Assembly (NCBI GenBank): GCA_951804945.1
Contig: OX638158.1
Span: 38,068,001-38,132,000 of the forward strand
DNA length: 64,000 bases
DNA from: Podarcis cretensis
Lineage: Eukaryota
Direction of reading: 5' to 3'
Made by a program: the position numbers and the translations under genes. Positions 5,454 to 52,027 of this stretch are shown in pieces. The notes under the pieces are model-generated. The model worked only from the letters and a program-made list of their open reading frames with translations, did no database searches and was not told the origin of the DNA. Every line of letters begins with the position of its first letter. The stretch's first letter is position 1.

Positions 5454-5538
5454 GCTTATAACCCGTCAGTCTGACTGGGTTGCCCTAGTCACCATGGGCA
5501 GCTTCCAACATAATAAAAGCACAGCATTAACATGCATG

Positions 5539-6231
5539 GTCTGAAGCTCAACATCAAAAAAACGAAGATCATGGCCACTGGGCCCATCACCTCCTGGCAA
5601 ATAGAAGGGGAAGAAATGGAGGCAGTGAGAGATTTTACTTTCTTGGGCTCCATGATCACTGCAGATGGTGACAGCAGTCACGAAATTAAAAGACGCCTGC
5701 TCCTTGGGAGAAAGGCGATGGCAAACCTAGACAGCGTCTTAAAAAGCAGAGACATCACCTTGCCAACAAAGGTCCGTATAGTTAAAGCCATGGTTTTCCC
5801 AGTAGTGATGTATGGAAGTGAGAGCTGGACTATCAAGAAGGCTGATCGCCGAAGAATTGATGCTTTTGAATTATGGTGCTGGAGGAGACTCTTGAGAGTC
5901 CCATGGACTGCAAGAAGATCAAACATATCCATTCTTAAGGAAATCAGCCCTGAGTGCTCACTGGAAGGACAGGTCGTGAAGCTGAGGCTCCAATACTTTG
6001 GCCACCTCATGAGAAGAGAAGACTCCCTGGAAAAGACCCTGATGTTGGGAAAGATGGAGGGCACAAGGAGAAGGGGACGACAGAGGACGAGATGGTTGGA
6101 CAGTGTTCTCGAAGCTACAAACATGAGTCTGACCAAACTGCAGGAGGCAGTGGAAGACAGGAGTGTCTGGCATGCTCTGGTCCATGGGGTCACGAAGAGT
6201 CGGACACGACTAAACGACTAAACAACAACAT
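5539..6231 (+). mobile_element. RTE-BovB LINE, 5'-truncated
   Basis: Uninterrupted 229-aa RT C-terminal ORF (GLKLNIKKTKIM...IDAFELWCWRRLLRVPWTARRSN...HGVTKSRTRLND), (CAA)n tail, TSD catgcatg at 5531-5538 and 6232-6239. Confidence 0.95.
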
Positions 6232-12857: not shown

Positions 12858-13113
12858 GTATGGATAACTTTAGTATTGTTTAATACACTTTATTTTATTG
12901 CATGCTATGCAAAGTACTTTCTCATACTGAAAGATAAGTGCATAGTAGCATACATCTTCTGGACATAACATCATATTGTGAACTATAATTTGGAACTATT
13001 TGCATCCAAAGAATAGTGATTGTCTGTCCTCCCCACCCCCACCCCTGGTGTTGGTCTTTAAAAGCAGGCAGAAAGGCAGTAATTATTTTCCCTGCTTTGG
13101 TGTCCCTGACTAG

Positions 13114-13316
13114 GCAACTTAAAAAGGATTGACTTGACTTCAAATTTTATATCTGAAATTGATGAAGATGCCTTCAGGAAACTACCACAACTTCAGGAAC
13201 TGATACTTCGAGATAACAAGATAAGGCAGCTTCCAGAATTACCACCAACCTTGATATTCATTGATATTAGTAACAACAGGCTTGGTCGCAAAGGAATCAG
13301 ACAAGAAGCATTTAAA
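13114..13316 (+). CDS. EPYC: Epiphycan exon 5 (LRRs)
   Basis: gactag / gtgagt, 203 nt; NLKRIDLTSNFISEIDEDAFRKLPQLQELILRDNKIRQLPELP...GIRQEAFK. Confidence 0.97.
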
Positions 13317-14120
13317 GTGAGTTCTGTATTTAACTGCTGACTAATTTGAAAAAAATCCCTCAATTTGACTAATAAAAATAGCCATTATAAGAGCAGGAGG
13401 GAGTTCTCTCATATAAAGTGATGTGAGATAGTTATTCCAGTGCAAAACAACATGGTGGCGGAGGCTTAATTCCTAAGGTCAGTGTAGAAAGGATCATGGA
13501 TTAGGCACATATTATTTTCCTCTTATTTATTTTATTTTATTGTGCACTGCTTGATTGTGAAAAAGCTCCAAGCAGTTTACAAATATAAAACAATAACATT
13601 ATCAGTAAAAACAACCAAAAGATTTTTTTAAATCGAAATTTGCCACTAGCATGTATTTTTAAGCAACCTGTGCCATGCACATATACATCAAAACTGATAC
13701 AGAAGCCATATTTTTGTACTCAAATTTAATACTCAAATGGAAAAAATACCTTGCATGAAGTCACTGTCAGAGTAAGGTGGCAGTTGTATGGCAGCATGGT
13801 ATGATTCTGTCTTCCGTGCTCTGAGAACAACGGGGAAATTGTGCAGTAATAAAGAGAGAGCTGCAGTGAGGTCAAGCTCAGTCTTATGGCCTGAAGTAGC
13901 CAGGCTTTGCAAACTTTAAAACAAGCAAATAAAACCACTAAGCCGATTGTTCCACACAACTGGAGCTTTGACATTCATTGAATCTCTAAAAAGAATCAAT
14001 CTTGGTACAGATGTTTAAAATGATTGGCTGAATTTAAGTGTCTGTACTCATGTGTGGCTCAGAACGAGAACAAAGAAATCACTTCTTTTAAAAATAATAA
14101 TAATAGTTTGTTTTCTTCAG

Positions 14121-14216
14121 GATATGTTTGACTTGCACCATCTTTACATCACTGATAACAACTTGGATCATATCCCACTTCCACTCCCTGAAAGCCTCCA
14201 GTCTCTTCATCTGCAG
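14121..14216 (+). CDS. EPYC: Epiphycan exon 6
   Basis: cttcag / gtgggc, 96 nt; DMFDLHHLYITDNNLDHIPLPLPESLQSLHLQ. Confidence 0.97.
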
Positions 14217-15341
14217 GTGGGCTAAAACAATCAATAAATTCTTTTGGATATAGTGTTGACTGCATAAGAAGTGTGCCAAATTTCATACAAATAGGTTCAG
14301 GGGCTTTCGTGCTAGGAAGAACTAAATATTATTTCCTTTTGTTAGAAGTTGGACCCATTGGTTACAAAGGTGCTCTCTCTCCCCCTCCGCATCCTTGAGC
14401 TTTTCTTAAATTTGGAGACATAAATTACATATGTATACACAAAAAGTATCAGGTGTTATAACAATAATTGAACAACAAACCAACAACACCAGAACTGGCT
14501 TGTGAATATAAAGAACAATTTTACTGGAATAAATATATACCCTCATAAACCAACTAGACAATGGGCAAACTAAAGTCCAATGTGCATAACCAAGCCTGTA
14601 CTGGCTGTACTGGTTATGTATGCAATAAATATGTCATAACACAGCTGGAACAAATAGTCGTTCACTGGAAGCACAATGCAATAAATGTAGGAGCGGTTGC
14701 CAGAAGGCGTTCTTCAAGTGGTTAGCTGGAAACGCAAAGCCAAATGATCAATTGAAGCCAAATAGATGAGACCTGTTGTCCGGATATTATCCAGGTTTTG
14801 CAGCAAGCTTCATCAGTCCATGATGCTAATCACTCAGCACAGTTCGCTCAAGACAAAAGGTACTCACAGGCACAGCTTACATGTGGTCTTGCAAAGCTGC
14901 TTCCCTCCACCCCCCATAGCACGGGGATTGTGGACAATGGTAAAATCATGTCCTCTGATAGCAAGCTAGACCTGTCAGTCACAACAGAGTTCCTCCTCTC
15001 TGGTCTCTCTAATACTAATGTTCTCCCTCTTCCCATCCTCCCAACATAGTGGGTAAGATTAGACACATCGGGCCACATCCAGCGCTTCAGCTTTCCTGAC
15101 GCAACAGACATCAGTGTGTGCAGTATATCTTCCTTTCCCCATCCTGTCACCCTCCGACCTTCCCACAAAATCAGCTTGGAGGCAGGGAGGAGATTCCGGT
15201 ATATGCAAGAGGTGGAGAGAAAATGGAGGTCCTATTGCACCAGTGGAACCACATACATGGAGCATTGGATAAAACCAATATCTGGTTGCAGCAGATATTT
15301 GTCTGCAGCATTTGATGTCTAGATATCTAAGGTGCCACAAA

Positions 15342-16200
15342 ATAATAATAAATAATAATTATATTATTTATACCTTGCCCATGTGGCTGGGTTTCCCCAG
15401 TCACTCTGGGCAGCTTACAGCATATCTTAAAAATATATATAAAAAAACATCAAGCGTTAGAAACCTCCTGATACAGGGCTACCTTCAGTTTATGTAATTC
15501 TTTATCTCCTTGACATCTGAAGGGAGGGCGTTCCACAGGGAGGGCACCACTACTGAGAAGGCCCTCTGCCTGGTTCCCTGTAACTTCGCTTCTCGGAGTG
15601 AGGGAACGAAACTAGCAGAAGACCCTCGGAGGAGGATCTCAGGGTGTGGGCTGAGCGATGGGGATGCTCCTTCAGGTATACTGGGCCGAAGCCATTTAGG
15701 GCTTTAAGGGTCAGTACCAACACTTTGAATTGTGCTCTGAAATGTACTGGGAGCCAGGGAAGATCCTTTAGGACCAGTGTTATATGGTCCTGGCCGCTAT
15801 TCCCAGTCACCAGTCTAGCTGCCACATTCTGGATTAGTTGTATTTTCCAAGTCACCTTCAAATATAGCCTCATGTAGAGTGCATTGCAGTAGTCCAAGCA
15901 GGAGATAACCAAGGCCTGCACCACTCTGGCGAGACTGTCTGTGGGCAAGTAGGGTCTCAGCCTGCATACCAGATGGGGCTGGTAGACAGCTGCCTTGAAC
16001 ACCAAATTGACTTGCACCTCCATGGACAGTTGTGAGTCCTGGTTGCACCTGGTCTTTCAGGGACACAGCCACCCCATTTAGGACCAGGGAGTCCCCCACA
16101 TCCGCCCGCCCCTTGTCCCCTCAAAACAGTACTTCTGTCTTGTCTTGATTGAACCTAAACCAGTCAGCCGCCATCCATCTGTCAACTGCCTCCAGACACT
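15342..16200 (-). mobile_element. L2 LINE 3' part in EPYC intron 6
   Basis: Minus ORF ...VQALVISCLDYCNALY...IQLIQNVAARLVTG...LPWLPVHFRAQFKVLVLTLKALNG; (TTA)n tail. Confidence 0.92.
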
Positions 16201-16507
16201 GACACTCAGAGCTCCCTGCTCTTATTATTCAGAGTTCTTATTACTTCAGAGTTCCCTGCTCTTTTTATTATTGATTCAGTTTCTCATCTGACCTTCATCA
16301 CAAAGTCCTAGGGCTTTGACTTGTGCCTCTTTGATATCCCACTTCACCTCTAAAAACCCCAAAATTCCTCTGAGGCACCCTGCTTGGCCCCAGGATCTAT
16401 CCAAATCCAGTGCACGCTACTACTAATTATTAGGTTATTGTTGACAAACTGACATTTAAATTGGAATTTAAATAGTGGCTTTAATAAATCTTTTGTTTTC
16501 TTTTTAG

Positions 16508-16678
16508 AACAACAATATACAAGAGATGCATGAAGATACTTTCTGCAAAATGAAGGATTATTCTTACATCCGCAAATCTCTTGAAGACATCAGGCTAGAT
16601 GGCAATCCCATTAATCTGAGCAAAACCCCTCATGCGTACATGTGTCTACCCCGTCTGCCTGTTGGGAGCCTCTTTTAG
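16508..16678 (+). CDS. EPYC: Epiphycan exon 7 (last coding exon, stop TAG)
   Basis: polypyrimidine tract + ttag acceptor; NNNIQEMHEDTFCKMKDYSYIRKSLEDIRLDGNPINLSKTPHAYMCLPRLPVGSLF*; the C-terminus and adjacency to CCER1 favour EPYC over OGN/OPTC. Confidence 0.97.
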   Translation, partial: NNNIQEMHEDTFCKMKDYSYIRKSLEDIRLDGNPINLSKTPHAYMCLPRLPVGSLF

Positions 16679-17717
16679 GCTTAGGCCATAACGAAAATGT
16701 CATGTAACATAATTTCTTTTGCAAGTATGCTTTCTAAAGCAAACTGCTTCAAAAGCTTGTGACAGTATGATATGGTTGTATTGGTGTAAAATAATAAGTA
16801 AACAGTTGCAGTCAGTAACGCACAGTGCTGAATACTAATTCATTCTCTATTAAAGTATACCATGCTTCCATATTGTAACCAGTGCATTGTAATCAGTGCA
16901 GAATAGCTGACATGATAACTATGATGAAAGGAGAAGGGAATGAATAAGTATTAGAGAAACTGAATATTAATGATACTTGGTTCATAATTTTATCCACATT
17001 AAAATTGTAATAGTAAAGCTATAAGAATTGTATATAAATAGAAAATGACCCATGCTACCTTGTTTTTAATCATATTCTATATGTAAAGCTTTTCCATAAT
17101 TTTTTTCATAAAAATGTAACAAAAGTCCTGTCTGGATGAAACCAAAGCTCCATATAGGCTAGCGTCCTACTTGCTATAGAGGGCAGCTAGGTGCCAGATC
17201 AGGTTATTTTACTAAAACATTAATATTAAAAATAAATATACTCTCTTGTAAAATGTTGAACATTGCTTTGTACTAGAGAGGAAACATGGAAACCGTCCTT
17301 ATACTGTATAAGTAAAAAAAATGTACACCAAGTATGTGTATTGTCTTCACAGTAATTTTGTGCTAGATAATAGTGAAGAAATAAAATTCCTCGCTTCTCT
17401 ACTAAGCTCACCAACCAACTCAAAGCAACAGTAGAAGACTTCTGTGAAATGATATATTTCAATAGTTCCTGACACTATGGAAATAAGTGCAGAGCAATAC
17501 AAAGTGCATTGTAGAAACTTTACAGAATGTTTCTGTTCATATATTTTAATACACCAAAGGAGAGAAAACATTCAAATATGAAGCACTCCTTCCTAAGAAA
17601 CTCTGTCCCCAACATTCGGTCAGTATTTACCTTCTACATATATGCTTTCCTCTCTAGCATCACACTACCTAATACTTACTTCAAGTGTCTATGACAGTTT
17701 AGAAGATACTGTCCTTA

Positions 17718-23299: not shown

Positions 23300-23662
23300 A
23301 TGCTTTATTCAATCTATACAAGGCTCCCAAGAGGAAAGGAAGTTACCACCCCTAGTGGCATGACACCTATGGCCCACTGAATCTGGGTCAAAGCAGCATC
23401 TCACACCGGGGTCTCATTGTATTACGAGCAGTGGCACCAAAGCCACAAAGAAAGAGGGAGCAACAGAAAACGACCAGGAAAAAAAAAGTACTGGAAAATC
23501 AGGAGTGTGCGCCCAGCTGGTTAAGGGCAGAAGGCACAAACCACACAATACAGAACTAACAGCACAAGCAGTGGCTGCTGTGGAAGGAGAAACTCCTAGG
23601 GAGGAAAAATCGAAAGTTGGAAAGGTAGTTTTTTGGAAGAGGCTTCCCAATTATCTCCTGAA

Positions 23663-24427
23663 ATGTGGAGACAGGGACGGCGGTGTTATCAGCAGCTGTC
23701 TCTGCAACTAGGATATACCAAACAATGGCCCAACATGGGAAGAAGGGACCAAAATGGTGAAAGAAGTGATCCAGGAGTGTCTCATGGTAGCCATCATGAT
23801 ACCAAAGTGAAGAAGCCCAAAGCTTGTCACTTTTCCGAACGGAAGAACGGTACGCTCTCTGGGAATGGTAGACCATGGAAGAAAAGGGGAGGCTATTGGA
23901 AGAAGAAAAGATCACCTAAGAAGGAGAAAGCAAAGCATTGGTATGCAAGTCACCAGTGGAAATCCAGATGTTGTAGGATTGGGAGAAGTCACCGCCGTAA
24001 TCGGAAGCGGAAGAGTCAGCGTTTGTTAGCATTTATGCATGCAGCTGTAAAGGGGAGACTGCGCCCCATGAATCTGTGTGGATGGAGGGCACCAGGAATG
24101 CGTGCCCCTAGGAACACAACACAGTTTATCATGCATCAGGTGTACCAAGACATGCGCCAGGAGGAGAAAAGGGCAGCAGCGGAAAAAGCAGCTGCTGCAG
24201 ACAAAAGAGAAGAAGAGAAATCAGAACAACAGCAATCCACAGGAGAGAATGATTGTGACATGGTATTTCCAAATGCCAGTTGCATGGCCACCATTTCGGC
24301 TATGAGCCCACAGATAAATATTTTCATGGGAGATGAGGAAGTTGGAGAAGATGAGAGTAGTCAGAAAAACCAAATATATGAAGATATAGGTCTGGAATCT
24401 CACCTGAGTATTTCCTGTGAGCCATAA
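23663..24427 (+). CDS. CCER1: Coiled-coil glutamate-rich protein 1, intronless, 254 aa from the first in-frame ATG (true start uncertain)
   Basis: Contains LRPMNLCGWRAPGMRAPRNTTQFIMHQVYQDMRQEEK, matching the recalled CCER1 core (WREPGMRAPPNTTQFIMNQIYEDMRQQEK); basic N-half, acidic C-half; downstream of EPYC on the same strand. Confidence 0.88.
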   Translation: MWRQGRRCYQQLSLQLGYTKQWPNMGRRDQNGERSDPGVSHGSHHDTKVKKPKACHFSERKNGTLSGNGRPWKKRGGYWKKKRSPKKEKAKHWYASHQWKSRCCRIGRSHRRNRKRKSQRLLAFMHAAVKGRLRPMNLCGWRAPGMRAPRNTTQFIMHQVYQDMRQEEKRAAAEKAAAADKREEEKSEQQQSTGENDCDMVFPNASCMATISAMSPQINIFMGDEEVGEDESSQKNQIYEDIGLESHLSISCEP

Positions 24428-29250: not shown

Positions 29251-29387
29251 NNNNNNNNNNNNNNNNNNNNNNNNNNNNNNNNNNNNNNNNNNNNNNNNNN
29301 NNNNNNNNNNNNNNNNNNNNNNNNNNNNNNNNNNNNNNNNNNNNNNNNNNNNNNNNNNNNNNNNNNNNNNNNNNNNNNNNNNNNNNN
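29251..29387. other. Assembly gap (137 N)
   Basis: Run of N. Confidence 1.
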
Positions 29388-40112: not shown

Positions 40113-41602
40113 TTAAGGAGTGCCTCCTCCCATAGGAATCTGCTCAGTTCTCAGAGTCTAATTCAAGGGTTAACCAAGGCAGTGCCTGGGGGAACCATCA
40201 TGCCTGCAAGGACCTCCTATGGCACCCCAGAATATCTCAATATATATCCCACTCCAAAATCCATTATGCACCAGAAACTGTTCACTCTTCCAGCTCGGTT
40301 CCTGTTTGCACTAGCTTGACCTTTCCTGCACTGAACATGGTCCCTCAGACACACCACCATTTCATTTGTTACCAAGATAGGACATCCACCTTCCCTTCAT
40401 TTCTGAACAGAGGACAGGTGCAAAGAGATTCTCTCTGTGAGTGCAGATGTAGTGGTTGATGTAGGTTCCTGTATTCCATTGATTGGGATGGCAAATGTGT
40501 CCACTGATCCAACAGCATTGATGGTGACTCCTAGTTTAATTTTCAGTCTCTGCTCCAAGTTCCCCGTATGGTGGATAGGTATGAGAGACAGAGCCTTTTC
40601 AGTTGTGGTGCCAAGATGCTGGAACAGCTCTGGTAAAGGTAGAAATGCATCTGGCTCCTTGACTGCTCACCTTTCAGCAGATAACCAAGAAATGCATTCT
40701 TTCCAGCTGCCATTTTTAGCTGTGGTCCTTTAAAATGGATTTCAGTGGCTGATGTTGGAACCATTTTTTAAAACTTTTATAGTGTTTTCATATAAAATTC
40801 AGGATATATTAAAAATTTCTGCCCTAAATATTTTTATAGGAAAGCAAGGAAAAAATTCTGAAGATCAAATATTTTATTTCATCTATTTGAAAACATTTGA
40901 GCAGTAACTCTTTTCTTTATGCTTTATCTCTTTGTCGGTATTGTACAGAAAATAGCATACCATTTTACACGGTGAAGTGAATTTACTGATTTACCTACAG
41001 CAGCACTAAATCATAGCTGAATCAATAGATCTACCTATCAGGAAAAATTACTAGGGCCCGCTTATTACTGCAAGCTTAGAAATAACACTCTATGCCATTC
41101 CTTTCCCACCAATATGCACCATTATTTTTGTATTTCCTTGCTTCAATATGAAATAATGTCTCAGGTGATCAGCAGCTTCCTTCACTACAGTTTCATGGGT
41201 TTCATTATCAATAAGCCAAGCTATTTCTCCCTCACATTTGAAAAGAGTTCTGACACATCCTCATATCATTTGCTTTAGTCTCATGTGCAATCCTGTAGAT
41301 TGAAAAACATTTTCCTCCTATATGAAGCAGACAGACAGAAGAAACCAGTGCTGGAATATATCAGCATTTCCTAACATTCTGACCCACCATTCTGCTGTAA
41401 ATTCAACCTTCCATATTCCACACTGCCCAGGCTACAGAACACAATGTGTCAGAAACACATTTGGTTATCTTGGACTTCCCAAGCCATTTGGTCGGATTAA
41501 TATTTGAATATTAGTTATGGAAAGTTGTGCTCTATTTTCAGAGTTTAGTCTGCATGTAATGCAAAATTGCTCCAAATTTGTGCACATCTCTCCTTAAACC
41601 AC

Positions 41603-42059
41603 TGTAGTGGTTTCTAAGGGGTTGCTCGTGCATAAGCAGGTACCTATCTCCCTGGCTGGGTGCAAACACCTGGCTGGGCTGCCAAAGTGAACCTTATCTG
41701 TCCAGACCGCCACTCACCCGTGGCTGACTCAGTCGCTGGCAGAATCCGTGAGTGGGCGTTTCTTAAACTTCTTCCAGCAAAGAAGCTCTTTGACGCCTAG
41801 TCTCCGCCTACCCTCTCTGCGCGAAAGCCTTCTGCGCAGGGAGGGCGTGGGCAACGGAGGACCCCTACTCTCCCTGCTGGTCCCAGGCAAGGAGTCATGA
41901 GACCGCCTCGCCACTTCCCCCAGCTGCACCCCTTCTCCACTGGTGCTATGCTGATTCTCTTCCCCAGAAGAAGGGCTGCTCCTCCCGATCCCTGGACGCT
42001 CTCTGGAATCCCTCTGGCTTTTGTGCTCTCCCTCCAGGACTGATGGCAGGTCCCTGACA
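41603..42059 (-). mobile_element. Gypsy-like solo LTR (copy A) containing a 109-codon ORF
   Basis: TGTCAGGGA...CTACA termini; perfect 5-bp TSD accac (41598-41602, 42060-42064); homologous to 51559-51952. Confidence 0.88.
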
Positions 42060-44669
42060 ACCACAAAGCATGTATCATAATAAAGTTATTAATAACAGTG
42101 ACTTCTCCAGGTTTGAGTCAGAAGTCTAATTTTATTTATTTATTAATTGGTGGGATGGTAGAAGTGGCACAGGCAATGAGTATTTTTCCAGCTTGAAATC
42201 GCAATCTGAGCTGAAGAAGAACTAGCAAGGCTATAATGCACACTATGGCTTGAGGATAATCTAGATATAGATTTTTTTTTTCCTTGGAAAAAGCATGAGT
42301 CATAAAACATTCACTGGATGTGACAAAGTAAAAGAACCACTGTAAGTCTTCCCAAAGAGCTCCACATTCCCTTATAAACAAGCCAAGTGTAACTATTCAA
42401 TAATGGGATCTTTATAAAAGTCCATCACCAATTTCATTATGGGCCAAGAACAATCAGGTCAGCTCAACTATTTCTTTTGAAGTTATTTATAAATGATACA
42501 CTGAGTTGTTGCTGGCAAAGTTAGTGGAAAATGTAAGATGATGTAAGATTCATGAGCTTCTAATATTTTGAGCACCAAGGAATATGATAAATCTTTAATG
42601 CTTGAGAGCACAGATTTGCAGTAACATTGGATTTCTTGAACAATGAATCAAAATCCTGGGCACTGTGTACCATTCACCTTCTGTCTGAAATTCCTATTGA
42701 AAACAGTGGGATTTTTCCTCTTTCGGTTCTTGGGTCCTCTTAGTTTTTTCCCTGACAACTCTCAAACTAATCAACCTCACAGGGTTGTTGTGGGGATAAA
42801 GTAGGGGGCTGAACCTGGTGCACCAGGCTGAACTCCTTGTAAGAAGAGTAGAGCACAACAATGAATGGCTTCCAGAAAATGAATGGCTCCATTCAAAAAT
42901 GAATGGAGAAATGAATGAATGGAGTCACCTGCATTGCTAATATCCATTTTTATAGTTCTTCTGGCACATATGGTGTTTAGATAAATGTTTATGGTGCTTG
43001 GATCAATGGTATATTCATGCAGATCTGTCCCCTGATCCACAGTAGCTTACTGGTTTGATGGTTATCTTCCGACATCTCGCTACCCAATGATTGGTGACCA
43101 TTCTGTGATTCTCCATCTCATCTGTTACAGCAGGTGTACAGAGATCAAATTAAAAATATTTGACAGGATGAAATAATAGAAGCTTGGCATAAATTTTATG
43201 AATTTTACCTAAAGTTGGCCTGGAATAATATATACCATTTAGAAAACGTTTCATATATGCAAATCGGGTTTTTCAGATTTGATATGAAAGCAAGGCAACT
43301 GATGTTGTCTCAGTAAGTTAAGTTCAATCAAGTATAATTAAGTACAATTGGATATACTTTGGCTTGTAATTATCCTTGGACTTCTTGAGTGGGTGGGATA
43401 TTTTAATCTTGCCTTTTAAAAACATGATTGCATTTTATAGTTTTCTGTTTTGTTTTTGTTTTATGCTGGTTTTGATGTATGTGTTTGTTTATTTTTCTCT
43501 GTAAGCTGCTGTGAGTTTTAGTAAAATAAATAAATAAATCCAACCAACTAATAAGTTTAAGAAATAAATAAAAAGTGCAAATCAAGTACTCACCACCACC
43601 TGGTATATATGATGTAAAAATAAGACCCAGCCAGTCAGATGCATAGAGTTCAAAAGATGAAAATCCAGTGCCAAGAAAGATTATTGCACAAGGAGTTGTT
43701 GCTGGCAAAGATGACCTTTTCTTAGTGTTTTCAGATGTGGGCTGACCAGATTGGATCTTTATGTTCTTTGTAGAGATAATTCATGCATCCCAAAGAGCAG
43801 CCATTGTTTTTGAAATATCAACAGCTCAAGTTGTGGTTTGTATTGTTGCACAAAAACACTAATCAACACCATATTATCAATTATTATCACAGTGTATGAG
43901 TCATTCAAGCAAACCATTCGATTCCTTAGCACCGTGTGGTGAATGCCAGCAGTACTTGGAAATACTGTATTTGCAGCAGCAGTATTCAATTTAAATTGAC
44001 CTCTTTAAGCACCCTTATGTAGGAAATAGCACTAAGACGACCCTCCCTTATGTGCAGCCATTTTTTATTAATTCTGTTCATTTGAGGACAGCTGGGGGAC
44101 TTCCATTGTGAGAAGAGATGGTGGAGGATTCTAGTTATTTCCTTGCCACTTGGAAGCAGTGGCAAAACTGTAATCATCAAGCTAGAAATGGTTGCAATGT
44201 CCTCCTACACAATGGCCCAATGAAAATGGCACCATATCCTGGTCAGTGGGGGCATCTACCTTTCTTCCCCCACAATGCCCCTGGTGCTACATGATGATGC
44301 AGCATTGCTCCCATTGGACCACAGGACATCGTTACGTTGCCAAACTGCTCATTGTAGCCCTGTTGTTTTTGAAGCAGTGTCAAAGCATTGTTGTTGATGT
44401 TTAAAAGAAAGGAAATGGAACCCTTTGGCCATAACCGCTCATAATGGAAAGCCCTCCATCTCTGAAAATGAATAGATTTTGCCATGCCCATGAAAAGATG
44501 GACATTCCTGTCATTTAAAGTCTACTCAGTATTGATCCAGCATAGATTCCAATGTATAGTCAGCAGAGTAAAAACTTAAACACGTTGCAGGATTCCCCCC
44601 CAAAATAGACCAGGGGAAATTGTATTTCATCCAGCAGAGCTTTACTGCTACTGAAGACAAATGAGAATA

Positions 44670-48349: not shown

Positions 48350-49984
48350 CAGGGCCGGATTTAGATGAAGAGAGGCCCTAGGCTACTTCACTTGTGAGGC
48401 CCCTCCCCATCCCCCACCCTCACAACTAGGAGAAAATGGAAGAGTGTTATAAACAAAATTGAGTGAAGCCAAGAATGATGACGGGTATTTAAAATTCTAC
48501 AATTCACAATTTCTTCTCTAAACGACATAATATATTATTGTTAAATACCATGGTGATTTTAAATTCAAGTTGCGCCCCACTGCTTATAGAATCATAGAAT
48601 CATAGAATCATAGAGTTGGAAGAGACCACAAGGGCCATTGAGTCCAACCCCCTGCCAAGCAGGAAACACCATCAGAGCACTCCTGACATATGGTTGTCAA
48701 GCCTCTGCTTAAAGACCTCCAAAGAAGGAGACTCCACCACACTCCTTAGCAGCAAATTCCACTGTCGAACAGCTCTTACTGTCAGGAAGTTCTTCCTAAT
48801 GTTTAGGTGGAATCTTCTTTCTTGTAGTTTGGAGCCATTGCTCCGTGTCCGCTTCTCTGGAGCAGCAGAAAACAACCTTTCTCCCTCCTCTATGTGACAT
48901 CCTTTTATATATTTGAACATGGCTATCATATCACCCCTTAACCTCCTCTTCTCCAGGCTAAACATGCCCAGCTCCTTTAGCCGTTCCTCATAAGGCATCG
49001 TTTCCAGGCCTTTGACCATTTTGGTTGCCCTCCTCTGGACACGTTCCAGTTTGTCAGTGTCCTTCTTGAACTGTGGTGCCCAGAACTGGACACAGTACTC
49101 CAGGTGAGGTCTGACCAGAGCAGAATACAGTGGCACTATTACTTCCCTTGATCTAGATGCTATATTCCTATTGATGCAGCCCAGAATTGCATTGGCTTTT
49201 TTAGCTGCCGCATCACACTGTTGGCTCATGTCAAGTTTGTGGTCAACCAAGACTCCTAGATCCTTTTCACATGTACTGCTCTCAAGCCAGGTGTCACCCA
49301 TCTTGTATTTGTGCCTCTCATTTTTTTTTGCCCAAGTGCAATACTTTACATTTCTCCCTGTTAAAATTCATCTTGTTTGTTTTGGCCCAGTTCTCTAATC
49401 TGTCAAGGTCGTTTTGAAGTGTGATCCTGTCCTCTGGGGTGTTAGCCACCCCTCCCAGTTTGGTGTCATCTGCAAATTTGATCAGGATGCCCTTGAGTCC
49501 ATCATCCAAGTCATTGATAAAGATGTTGAATAAGACTGGGCCCAAGACAGAACCCTGTGGCACCCCACTAGTCACTCTTCTCCAGGATGAAGAGGAACCA
49601 TTGATGAGCACCCTTTGGGTTCGGTCAGTCAGCCAGTTACAAATCCACTGAGTGGTAGCATAGTTAAGACCGCATTTTACCAGCTTCTTAGCTTCTTTAC
49701 AAGAATAAAATTGGGCCCTGAGTCTAATGAATTGCCCTGCCCTTGCATGAAATCTTGGGTTTACAATTTTTGGAGAGGGGAGACTGCGGCACTGGGAAGA
49801 GGGCAGGCTGGCGAGGCCCCCTAGATTTAGAGGTTTGAGTTGCCCTGCCCTCACATGAAGTCTTGGGTTTGCAATTCTGGGAGAGGGGAGACTGCCCGCT
49901 GGGGAGCGGACTGGCGGGCAAGGCCCCCTAGATTTAGAGGCCCTATGCTTCAACCTACTTAGCCTATACATAAATCCGGCACTG
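48350..49984. mobile_element. hAT-type non-autonomous element hosting a CR1
   Basis: TIR cagggccggattta...taaatccggcactg; 8-bp TSD cacacaca (48342-48349, 49985-49992); internal ~105-bp tandem duplication at 49729-49940. Confidence 0.85.
48586..49689 (-). mobile_element. CR1 LINE, 5'-truncated, young
   Basis: RT motifs [47 protein letters not shown]; (GATTCTAT)n tail; one frameshift at the T9 run 49321-49329. Confidence 0.97.
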
Positions 49985-50254
49985 CACACACAACAATCCC
50001 AAAGGAACATTTGCGTACAGAAATAAAGCAGGTTAAACACATCTAGCTAGTCCTAGTGAATACTGATTCCTATCAGCTAAGATTCTGTTAAGCAAGTCTT
50101 ACAGTTAGAGTTCTTGAGATCTTAAGACAGTTTCCAGTGATGGTCTTCTTTCTCTTATCTCATTATTTTCTAACACTTTGGCTGGCTACCTGCTCTCAGA
50201 CCACCTCATACGAATTCCATACATTATCTAGGGAATCCAGCAATCTGTGGATTC

Positions 50255-50589: not shown

Positions 50590-51558
50590 TGTAAGGAATA
50601 AAAGGCTGGTTCAGATAAAATATGGCATGTTCTCCACAACTAAGAAATTGGGAAACAGTTTGTTCCATTAGTTTGCTGGGAATCAGAAAAAGAAAACAAA
50701 TAGTGGATGCTGTGTTATTCTGCATGTAAATACTAGAAACTGTACAGCTAGCTTTCCTAATTTGGTCTGAGAAGAGACATGCATAAAAAAGACTTTATAT
50801 GCAAATTGGAAATTAGACAAGGTAAAAAAATGTATAGCAAAGTTTTTGACAGAACTGCTTAGCATTGCAGAAGTGCTCTCACCTCCTTCTTTATCCCATT
50901 TTGGCATTTCACACGCAGAGACAAATTAGAGACACCCTTTGACATTTCTGTCTGTTTCATCTCCACACAAGTGATATCAGTCAAATAAAAAGAGGGAAAA
51001 TGGCAACTAGCTTCTTGTGTGTTGATAGAAAGCCATTGGTGACTTTCCACAGAAGATTTGGATTGGGAATCAGACATGAATCTCCGAGGTAAAGCCCTTC
51101 CAAAGTGACCCTAAGTGAATACCACCTTCCAAGCTATTCAAAATATTCAGAGCTATTAAAAAACAAAAAAAAATCATACACAGTTGCCTAGACTAAGGGT
51201 GACATCCACTTGTAGCCTTGTGCAGGACCCAGAAGAGAGTCTTTTCTGTAGTGGCTCCCTACTATAGAATTCCATCTCCTTGGAACATGAATGGTCCCAC
51301 AAAGACCCATGTATTTTCTGAAGCCTTTTGAAAGATGAAACTTGATTTATTTTTGCCTGGATCATCCCAGATATGTATGTATGTATTATTATTGGAATGA
51401 AACTGCCCACTATGCTTTAATTGCATTGTATGATGTTTTAGTGATGTGGAAACTGCTTTGAGATTATTCTGATAAAAACTAGTATATAAAAGTCTCAAAT
51501 AAATAAAATAAATAGATCTTTCAGAGTAGGTATCCAAATTAAAGTAAGTCAATGGCAC

Positions 51559-51952
51559 TGTCAGGGAACTGCCATCGGAGCTCAGGGTGGTGGAGAGGCT
51601 CTCGGATGCTGAGGAGGGAACCAGCAGGGGGAGAGGGAGAATTTCCACTGAAGAAGATGGGAAGGAGGTGAGGCTCAGAGACGCTTCAAGCAAGACCAGT
51701 AGTGAGAGCTCAGGACCTCCCCTTGGAACGCCCACTCTGCGCAGAAAGCTGTCGTGCAGGGAATCAAGGAGGAGACTTTCTGTCAAAGAGCTTTTATGTT
51801 GGAAGAAATTCAGGAAACGCCCACTGACGGATTCTGCCAGTGATTAAGGCAGCCACGCACGCATGGCTGTCTGGTTAGGGAAAGTTTGAAACTAACTACA
51901 AAACTGGGAGCGTTTTAGCGCTTACGCACAAGCAACCCCTTATCCCATTACA
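51559..51952 (+). mobile_element. Gypsy-like solo LTR (copy B) containing a 95-codon ORF
   Basis: TGTCAGGGA...TTACA termini; perfect 5-bp TSD ggcac (51554-51558, 51953-51957). Confidence 0.88.
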
Positions 51953-52027
51953 GGCACATATGATTCTTTGTCTTCTTTCCTATTGTTTCAGGCACAAATA
52001 ATCTGAGCAGATGTCAATATGAAGAGT

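Follow-up and report, generated by a model that had tools for sequence, protein, structure and literature searches.

Evidence that the LTR-coded peptide of a lizard Tf1/sushi-type chromovirus is the conserved C-terminal tail of Pol

INTRODUCTION

Coding sequences that overlap the U3 region of an LTR are familiar from HIV nef and MMTV sag, both of which are separate proteins produced from spliced RNAs. For vertebrate Ty3/gypsy elements, the questions of how the nucleus is entered and how insertion sites are chosen are, to our knowledge, largely open. In plants, a pol gene extending into the 3′ LTR has been described for group A of the CRM elements (PMC3059260) and for the beet elements Bingo1-4 and 7 (PMC3605345), and plant chromoviruses prime reverse transcription with tRNA (10.1101/2022.12.06.519325). 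In yeast Ty1, the integrase carries a C-terminal bipartite NLS, the linker of which holds a short conserved host-binding peptide (TD1; PMC7459421). On the host side, the TND-interacting motif (TIM, also IBM) consists of a helix ending in F, an acidic S/T/G linker of 8-16 residues and an FxGF sequence that is essential for binding to the TNDs of LEDGF and HRP2 (PMC9987994).

Here we describe two solo LTRs, A and B, found in a 64-kb stretch of Podarcis cretensis DNA, the whole of which will be named hereafter the window. The original prediction, made from the letters of the window, held that both LTRs encode a peptide under purifying selection. The feature proved to be real; A and B themselves are ordinary fossils, and it is the integrase tail of the family from which they derive that constitutes the lead.

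RESULTS

Two solo LTRs and the element family to which they belong

A and B belong, as solo LTRs, to a family of Ty3/gypsy chromoviruses of the Tf1/sushi type. LTR A (41603..42059, minus strand; 457 bp) represents the A-type subfamily and LTR B (51559..51952, plus strand; 394 bp) the B-type subfamily. Both have TG...CA ends and, as originally claimed, they are independent insertions with perfect 5-bp TSDs, ACCAC for A (41598..41602 on the left and 42060-42064 on the right) and GGCAC for B (51554..51558 and 51953-51957). LTR A has matches of 93-97% across the genome, and an identical LTR type flanks gag-pol in the two-LTR copy L066, while LTR B, which is 18 bp shorter than a 412-bp class, corresponds to the LTR flanking gag-pol in L031, L032 and L033.

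Both LTRs lie downstream of a CCER1-like gene, a single-exon frame at 23600-24427 (plus strand; Pfam CCER1 E-value 4.5e-19, with a weak HEXIM match). Three leucine-rich-repeat exons ending in ...LPRLPVGSLF are located at ~13100-16700 (plus strand) and resemble epiphycan (EPYC), the usual neighbour of CCER1. No host gene was found around A and B using long ORFs and the leucine-rich-repeat pattern, a search that would miss most exons. The window also contains LINE fragments at 5517-6221 (plus strand), 48672-50046 (minus strand, with an RVT_1 match at 49321-50046) and 15550-16056 (minus strand), which we take to be of the BovB/RTE, CR1 and L2 types, as well as a dispersed SINE-like repeat family near 10.9, 27.0, 34.6, 39.7, 45.0 and 50.4 kb, presumably the Sauria SINE. 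A run of N at 29251-29387 is unrelated to the LTRs.

Over the last 39 codons plus stop (41729..41848, minus strand, in A; 51728..51847, plus strand, in B), the alignment of A with B contains 33 identical residues, 12 synonymous codon differences and 6 replacements. Within the last 21 codons there are 7 synonymous differences and a single K/R exchange, and the stop is in register (TGA vs TAA). These counts, together with the peptides and the position of the stop, reproduce those of the original prediction codon for codon. Third positions account for 14 of the 24 nucleotide differences. When the block is read in four other frames, the synonymous to replacement counts are 4:16, 3:16, 2:17 and 3:17, and in the antisense frame with the same third positions they are 9:10. 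Since the same synonymous-rich pattern is seen family-wide (see below), it is not due to chance.

In the 1.5 Gb of genome searched, at least 2,398 LTR copies match the codon pattern for ELLCWKKF exactly (0 in the control), following a first look that gave 2,462 candidates for B and 2,948 for A, and 808 PPT/LTR junctions were counted. Copies are spread along the contigs, occurring on all 19 large contigs with a mean flank GC of 0.42; the family is young and most copies are open in the motif frame. Ten two-LTR copies were examined, with lengths of 3.9-6.2 kb, LTR identities of 94.7-99.3% and a 5-bp TSD in nine and a 6-bp TSD in one. Their interior encodes gag, protease, RT, RNase H, integrase, SH3_Tf2-1 and a chromodomain (Pfam order PR-RT-RH-IN), with pol in the -1 frame relative to gag. 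The Pfam Chromo model scores 39.3 and 37.1 bits in L071 and L042 (cut-off 25.1), L031 being under the cut-off, and the chromodomain also matches HP1-type PDB entries. Among 94 copies, 44 have a perfect 5-bp TSD, the flanks of which show a weak symmetric target preference, with A/T three bases out on both sides (39/44 each) and T two bases out on the right (27/44).

The nearest named proteins are Pol models of Podarcis muralis, which are 79-89% identical to the frame of L067 and carry the same motif at their C-termini (71% identity in P0006 and 80% in P0008). As the homologue search was dominated by one long row (P0001), it returned whole Pol proteins, the motif being present only in the Podarcis rows P0006-P0008. 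In a quick RT-RH tree of 51 of the 119 rows, which covered fungal and squamate relatives without named reference elements such as Tf1 or sushi-ichi, the B-type copies group with P0006-P0008 (SH-aLRT 96) and the A type falls outside that group in the same clade (98), an arrangement that makes the subfamilies appear older than one species. Long but different tails, continuing beyond both the chromodomain region and a PPT-like peptide, are also found in sister and more distant squamate elements, namely P0009 and P0010 (both from Podarcis) and P0011, which suggests that read-through into the LTR is common among squamate chromoviruses.

The pol frame runs into the 3′ LTR

In the two-LTR copies the pol frame passes through the integrase, the chromodomain and the polypurine tract (PPT), and reaches its stop ~300 nt inside the 3′ LTR. 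The B-type copy L031 has a 543-aa frame with rve and SH3_Tf2-1 matches that extends from the integrase core to PLTDSASD*. In L067 the frame spans 1260 aa between the protease region and this stop, and contains an in-frame gap beyond the chromodomain. The A-type copy L042 is open over 609 codons, in which rve, SH3 and Chromo score above cut-off. The PPT and the LTR start are themselves translated within the pol frame, as G-E-G-G-P-G-G-E-V-D-V-R-E, and all 40 loci picked on one contig by their PPT/LTR junction were family members. In solo LTR A, the LTR-coded end of the pol frame comprises 109 codons plus stop (41729..42058, minus strand) and is continuous with the chromodomain and integrase in L066 and L042; in B it comprises 95 codons plus stop (51560..51847, plus strand) and is continuous with the integrase in L031 and the pol frame in L067. 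Neither solo LTR contains a Met in the motif frame. Because the frame is continuous with pol and lacks a Met in both A and B, the peptide is to be regarded as the C-terminus of Pol and not as the product of a gene of the nef or sag kind. We estimate at roughly 0.95 the probability that it represents the C-terminal tail of Pol/integrase and has been under selection at the protein level. Judging from the reading frames, Pol would probably be made by -1 frameshifting from gag, and its processing would probably leave the tail on integrase.

The original prediction had instead proposed an accessory ORF analogous to nef and sag, an interpretation that fails on the continuity with pol and the missing start codon; the ORF upstream of the LTR in two-LTR copies, to which it had also drawn attention, was identified as pol (integrase plus chromodomain). 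It is true that the frame is open across the whole of U3 in most copies and that a splice into U3 is conceivable. However, a Met upstream of the motif is present in only 9 of 94 copies, and the predicted LTR transcription start lies inside the last eight codons (see below), so that an LTR transcript would not contain the motif. An independent accessory protein, expressed from a spliced or LTR-driven RNA, is thus very unlikely.

Selection on the tail acted in active elements

Selection was assessed using natural copies. The LTR start could be placed in 94 of 105 motif matches; after removal of one gapped copy and of nine LTRs that were the second of their element, 84 copies in eight groups remained. 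The between-group dN/dS over the last 46 codons, calculated as pairwise Nei-Gojobori averages over non-independent pairs, was 0.16 (kappa 1) or 0.23 (kappa 3); the antisense shadow frame yielded 0.28-0.39, and the other four frames 1.2-2.6. Groups 1, 3, 4, 5 and 7 had been picked in part by a pattern that fixes eight motif codons, and dN/dS is 0.30 when those codons are left out. Values of 0.13/0.20 were obtained with DNA-picked copies only (26 A x 28 B), and of 0.17/0.25 with the copies picked by their PPT/LTR junction (6 groups; 33/40 anchored, of which 31 ungapped). In the seven junction-picked copies that were not anchored, the motif was in frame in five, frameshifted in one and truncated in one. 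Purifying selection on an LTR-coded protein in the active family, as originally proposed, is thus borne out by a dN/dS of 0.13-0.25 between subfamilies, and the comparison with the other five frames that accompanied the proposal yields a low ratio only in the motif frame and, less so, in its antisense shadow.

The distribution of variants indicates when this selection took place. In the two large groups, of 28 and 33 copies respectively, the non-CpG variants that are private comprise 27 replacement and 11 synonymous changes, for ~98:40 sites, i.e. a ratio of ~1, whereas shared variants comprise 3 replacement and 16 synonymous changes (Fisher p=1.6e-4). Private variants being neutral and shared ones not, the elements must have been under selection while active, with the solo copies left as fossils. 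The notion that the peptide of the solo LTRs as such is selected, as the original wording implied, does not hold, given that solo copies lack a Met and their private changes are neutral. The same observations bear on host exaptation, i.e. selection of the peptide at the A and B loci themselves: A and B are both still open, but so are most copies of this young family, and the changes specific to B include a CpG-type R-to-C replacement. We consider the probability of exaptation to be negligible.

Length is constrained as well. For 89 of 94 copies, spanning nine length classes, and for 32 of 33 junction-picked copies, the distance from LTR start to stop leaves a remainder of 1 on division by 3; R+U5 lengths follow no such rule. 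Between A-type and B-type copies, amino acid identity is 0.84 in the motif (last 44 residues) and 0.83-0.84 in the integrase core, compared with 0.61-0.67 in the chromodomain and 0.32-0.35 in the middle of the LTR. The pN/pS ratio of the LTR middle is 0.90-0.98, implying that constraint there is on length and frame only. On these comparisons, the last ~40 residues of the tail equal the integrase core in conservation, and the LTR middle is a spacer, free in sequence but fixed in frame, which delivers the conserved terminal motif.

The last codons of pol overlap a predicted self-primer

An 11-mer two bases past the 5′ LTR matches, as its reverse complement, a run of 11 nt that covers the P-L-T-D-S codons at the end of the frame. 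These 11 nt, located at 41743..41753 (minus strand) in A and at 51823..51833 (plus strand) within the last codons of B, would form the 5′ end of the transcript and are predicted to act as a self-primer. Pairing with the PBS is 11/11 in 9 of 17 copies and 10/11 in the other 8; among 20 further regions, 6 of which were without an LTR, 11 pairs are formed in 10 of 14 copies and 9-10 pairs in 4. The self-primer of A is complementary at 11/11 positions in the A-type copy L066 and at 10/11 in L060, and the A-type pairing contains a compensatory change relative to the B type. Altogether, primer and PBS fall into five co-varying sequence types, including some that switch residue -6 among T, S and A. 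A second duplex is predicted between U5 (41621..41633, minus strand, in A; 51924..51936, plus strand, in B) and the leader downstream of the PBS. Taking the two duplexes together, pairing holds in 96% of cells, and both partners have changed in 8 of 25 pairs. Pairing in slid controls is 23-41%, but this comparison is lenient, the structure having been derived from the same sequences, and the weight rests on the compensatory changes.

The predicted transcript start is 25 nt before the end of the stop codon. Synonymous divergence (pS) is 0.21 in the last eight codons vs 0.71 in the 21 codons upstream, which argues that the former are held partly by RNA and the latter by protein. We predict that the last eight codons are doubly coded, as the C-terminus of Pol and as an RNA self-primer: transcription would begin ~25 nt ahead of the stop, and the initial 11 nt of the RNA would fold back onto the PBS and prime reverse transcription. 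Given the predicted start site, core-promoter elements probably overlap the same codons.

Could the whole block then be conserved for its nucleic acid only, as self-priming RNA or core promoter, with the open frame representing neutral read-through of pol? In part this is true of the last eight codons, with their low pS and the T/S/A alternation at residue -6 accompanied by compensating PBS changes, and the pN/pS near 1 of the LTR middle is also in line with it. The RNA-structure alternative considered in the original prediction thus applies to those eight codons; it does not apply to the 21 codons upstream of the predicted start, where pS is 0.57-0.84, i.e. near saturation, and dN/dS is 0.05-0.12. 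Constraint from a DNA or RNA element should act on third positions as well, and indels in U3 preserve the frame. The frame-specific dN/dS largely rules out conservation for nucleic acid alone, which we regard as highly improbable.

A conserved, predicted hairpin lies directly after the stop (41707..41727, minus strand, in A; 51848..51871, plus strand, in B), and genomic RNA must reach beyond the stop. No shared canonical AATAAA was found in R/U5 (within 41603-41728 in A and 51848-51952 in B) in any of the eight groups, and Rfam gave no match in the 64-kb window.

The terminal motif resembles a bipartite NLS enclosing a conserved, predicted helix

A classical bipartite NLS consists of two basic residues, a linker of 10-12 residues and a segment of five residues of which at least three are basic. 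The conserved end of the tail contains two basic clusters about ten residues apart, flanking V-K-x-L-L-C-W (41756..41809, minus strand, in A; 51767..51820, plus strand, in B). Of 37 junction-picked copies that keep the motif in frame, 36 show the bipartite pattern, which is of low specificity and easily met in a basic stretch. No substitution of V, K, L, L, C or W was seen among 31 junction-picked copies. The basic clusters tolerate change, with S/G before V and K replaced by S, R, T or H after W (9/31 junction-picked copies). A helix, V26-R36, is predicted with a pLDDT of 77 over residues 21-30, in a 46-residue model of mean pLDDT 64.6 and pTM 0.26. Its hydrophobic moment is 0.06-0.31 (11-residue windows covering VKELLCW), so that it is barely amphipathic and the earlier description of the motif as amphipathic is poorly supported. 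The peptide has no match in Pfam, PDB sequences, Foldseek PDB or the ESM Atlas, which agrees with the original remark that it is not a described domain and does not imply that such a match is absent elsewhere.

Partial likenesses to what we take to be eh1/Groucho (FxIxxIL), SAP (LSVKEL), PIP-box, PKA/Aurora, and palmitoylation plus polybasic motifs were considered. The kinase-site reading was rejected as the required Ser is Gly in A-type copies, and the others were set aside as partial matches only.

On this evidence it is likely that the LTR-coded tail, as part of Pol, serves as a bipartite NLS and offers a host nuclear protein a helix to dock on; nuclear import or tethering, as suggested in the original prediction, is the best available guess. 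Taken singly, the NLS role is reasonably probable, with the two basic clusters binding to importin-alpha, and for an additional docking role of the VKxLLCW helix we consider the odds to be even; this helix would bind another partner, by analogy with the NLS linker of Ty1 integrase.

Alternatively, the motif may be mainly an integration-targeting domain that binds a chromatin or transcription factor, with nuclear import being incidental or residing elsewhere in integrase. Invariance is highest at the hydrophobic residues V, L, L, C and W (31/31 each), and a plain NLS linker needs no invariant hydrophobic residues. Furthermore, the chromodomain of L071 is without the first and third HP1 cage aromatics (see below). 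As a vertebrate counterpart of the plant CR motif, the lizard motif would occupy the same position, at the C-terminus of integrase, downstream of the PPT and inside the 3′ LTR (PMC3059260, PMC3605345). Against this, the flanking basic residues are conserved too, the motif has no match in Pfam, PDB or the Atlas, and the dispersed copies (all 19 large contigs, flank GC 0.42) show no apparent centromere-like clustering. We find a targeting domain rather unlikely and retain the combination of NLS and docking helix as our preferred reading of the motif.

TIM-like motifs between the chromodomain and the PPT

Internal copies of the element, which lie outside the window, contain two blocks between the chromodomain and the PPT, each composed of an aromatic helix, an acidic S/T linker of 8-9 residues and FxGF. 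The pair is located at positions 5046-5270 of L032 (plus strand) and recurs in equivalent internal copies and in P0001, P0002 and P0006-P0008. Their linkers include 3-6 D/E and 2-5 S/T, compared with linkers of 8-14 residues, 4-6 D/E and 1-3 S/T in four solved TIMs. Spacing and charge agree with those of the KMT2A/MLL1, JPO2 and POGZ TIMs (motifs taken from the solved constructs); the helix of one element motif is near-identical to that of MLL1, with RWRAVF in the element paralleling RFRAVF in KMT2A. Two such motifs are present in 34 of 40 junction-picked copies, one in four and none in two. None of 20,000 shuffles contained two, the pattern having been written after the motifs were seen. Among 120 Pol-like proteins the pattern occurs in only four, three from Podarcis and one from Anolis. 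The latter (P0120, from Anolis carolinensis) has a single TIM-like motif (residues ~970-995), which strongly resembles motif 1 of JPO2; the protein belongs to a more distant element whose tail is without an evident chromodomain, and its motif may lie past the PPT, inside the LTR, as judged from the peptide.

Conservation of the TIM-like blocks between A and B types is only chromodomain-like (identity 0.65-0.71; pN/pS 0.34-0.55), the first F of the first motif is L or M in three Podarcis proteins, and the helix of that motif (104-112) appears only in a low-confidence model of the 300-residue tail (pLDDT 43). A phmmer search of the PDB with the 75-residue stretch holding the motifs gave no match. 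The host genome encodes LEDGF-family domains at two loci. In the chromodomain of L071 (query residues 42-94), two of the HP1 cage aromatics, the first and the third, are replaced by S and E, so that another tether could be accommodated; P0006 retains Y at the first of these positions. The loss seen in L071 is the ʻgroup IIʼ cage pattern, which according to PMC3605345 had previously been seen only in plants.

If functional, the two helix-acidic-FxGF motifs would bind to TND domains such as those of LEDGF or HRP2. It is a tentative proposal, for which we put the odds a little short of even, that the integrase tail mimics host TIMs and would tether the integration complex to LEDGF/HRP2 on transcribed chromatin, the LTR-coded end adding import and the docking helix in sequence that would double as promoter and RNA primer. 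TIM-like motifs in a retrotransposon were not found in our literature searches.

DISCUSSION

The class of element, self-priming, and, in plants, pol running into the LTR are already known. Our literature searches found no description of this lizard integrase tail or of a self-primer inside pol codons, parts of which may be covered by Butler et al. 2001, Gao et al. 2008, Repbase or Dfam. The locus represents a case of layered coding, in which the PPT, the att site, the promoter region and the self-primer are all within the pol frame. It also carries a caution: open frames with low dN/dS in thousands of such solo LTRs have been passed down by ancestors that were active, and should not be taken as a sign of exaptation. 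The family offers short conserved modules, namely the LTR-coded terminal motif and the two TIM-like motifs. If the latter bind to LEDGF/HRP2, this would be a retrotransposon that, by means of the motif of its host, uses the H3K36me reader familiar from lentiviral integrases and MLL leukaemia.

Compared with known systems, the lizard element shares with HIV nef and MMTV sag a coding sequence that overlaps the U3 of the 3′ LTR, but the lizard peptide, unlike those separate proteins, is the end of the Pol polyprotein. The NLS of Ty1 integrase with its TD1 peptide is a functional analogy only: Ty1 is a copia element, its linker is 29 residues long, and it is not reported as LTR-coded in PMC7459421. 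HIV integrase has the same LEDGF anchor, which the lizard element, should the TIM proposal hold, would reach by true motif mimicry; unlike host TIMs, the element motifs, as putative TND ligands, are part of the Pol of a retrotransposon, where they precede the LTR. Like plant CRM group A elements, the lizard element has a pol frame extending into the 3′ LTR. However, CRM has a CR motif in place of the chromodomain, whereas the lizard element retains a chromodomain upstream of the PPT, and unlike the tRNA-primed plant chromoviruses it is predicted to self-prime, with dispersed copies. It is likely that the two arrived at this layout independently.

The closest likeness is to the Tf1/sushi group of the Metaviridae (Tf1, sushi-ichi, MAGGY), with Gag, the order PR-RT-RH-IN, SH3_Tf2-1, a chromodomain, pol in the -1 frame and a 5-bp TSD, and the predicted self-priming duplexes recall the ʻpretzelʼ structure of Tf1 (10.1101/2022.12.06.519325). 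The Sushi LTR model has an AATAAA (PMC3601003), whereas the lizard family is without a shared canonical one. In relatives of fungal and other types (P0015, P0016 and P0032) Pol ends just after the chromodomain. Unlike in the Tf1/sushi group, ~200 residues follow the chromodomain in Pol of the lizard element, and its frame covers ~100 codons of the LTR, which places the predicted self-primer inside coding sequence.
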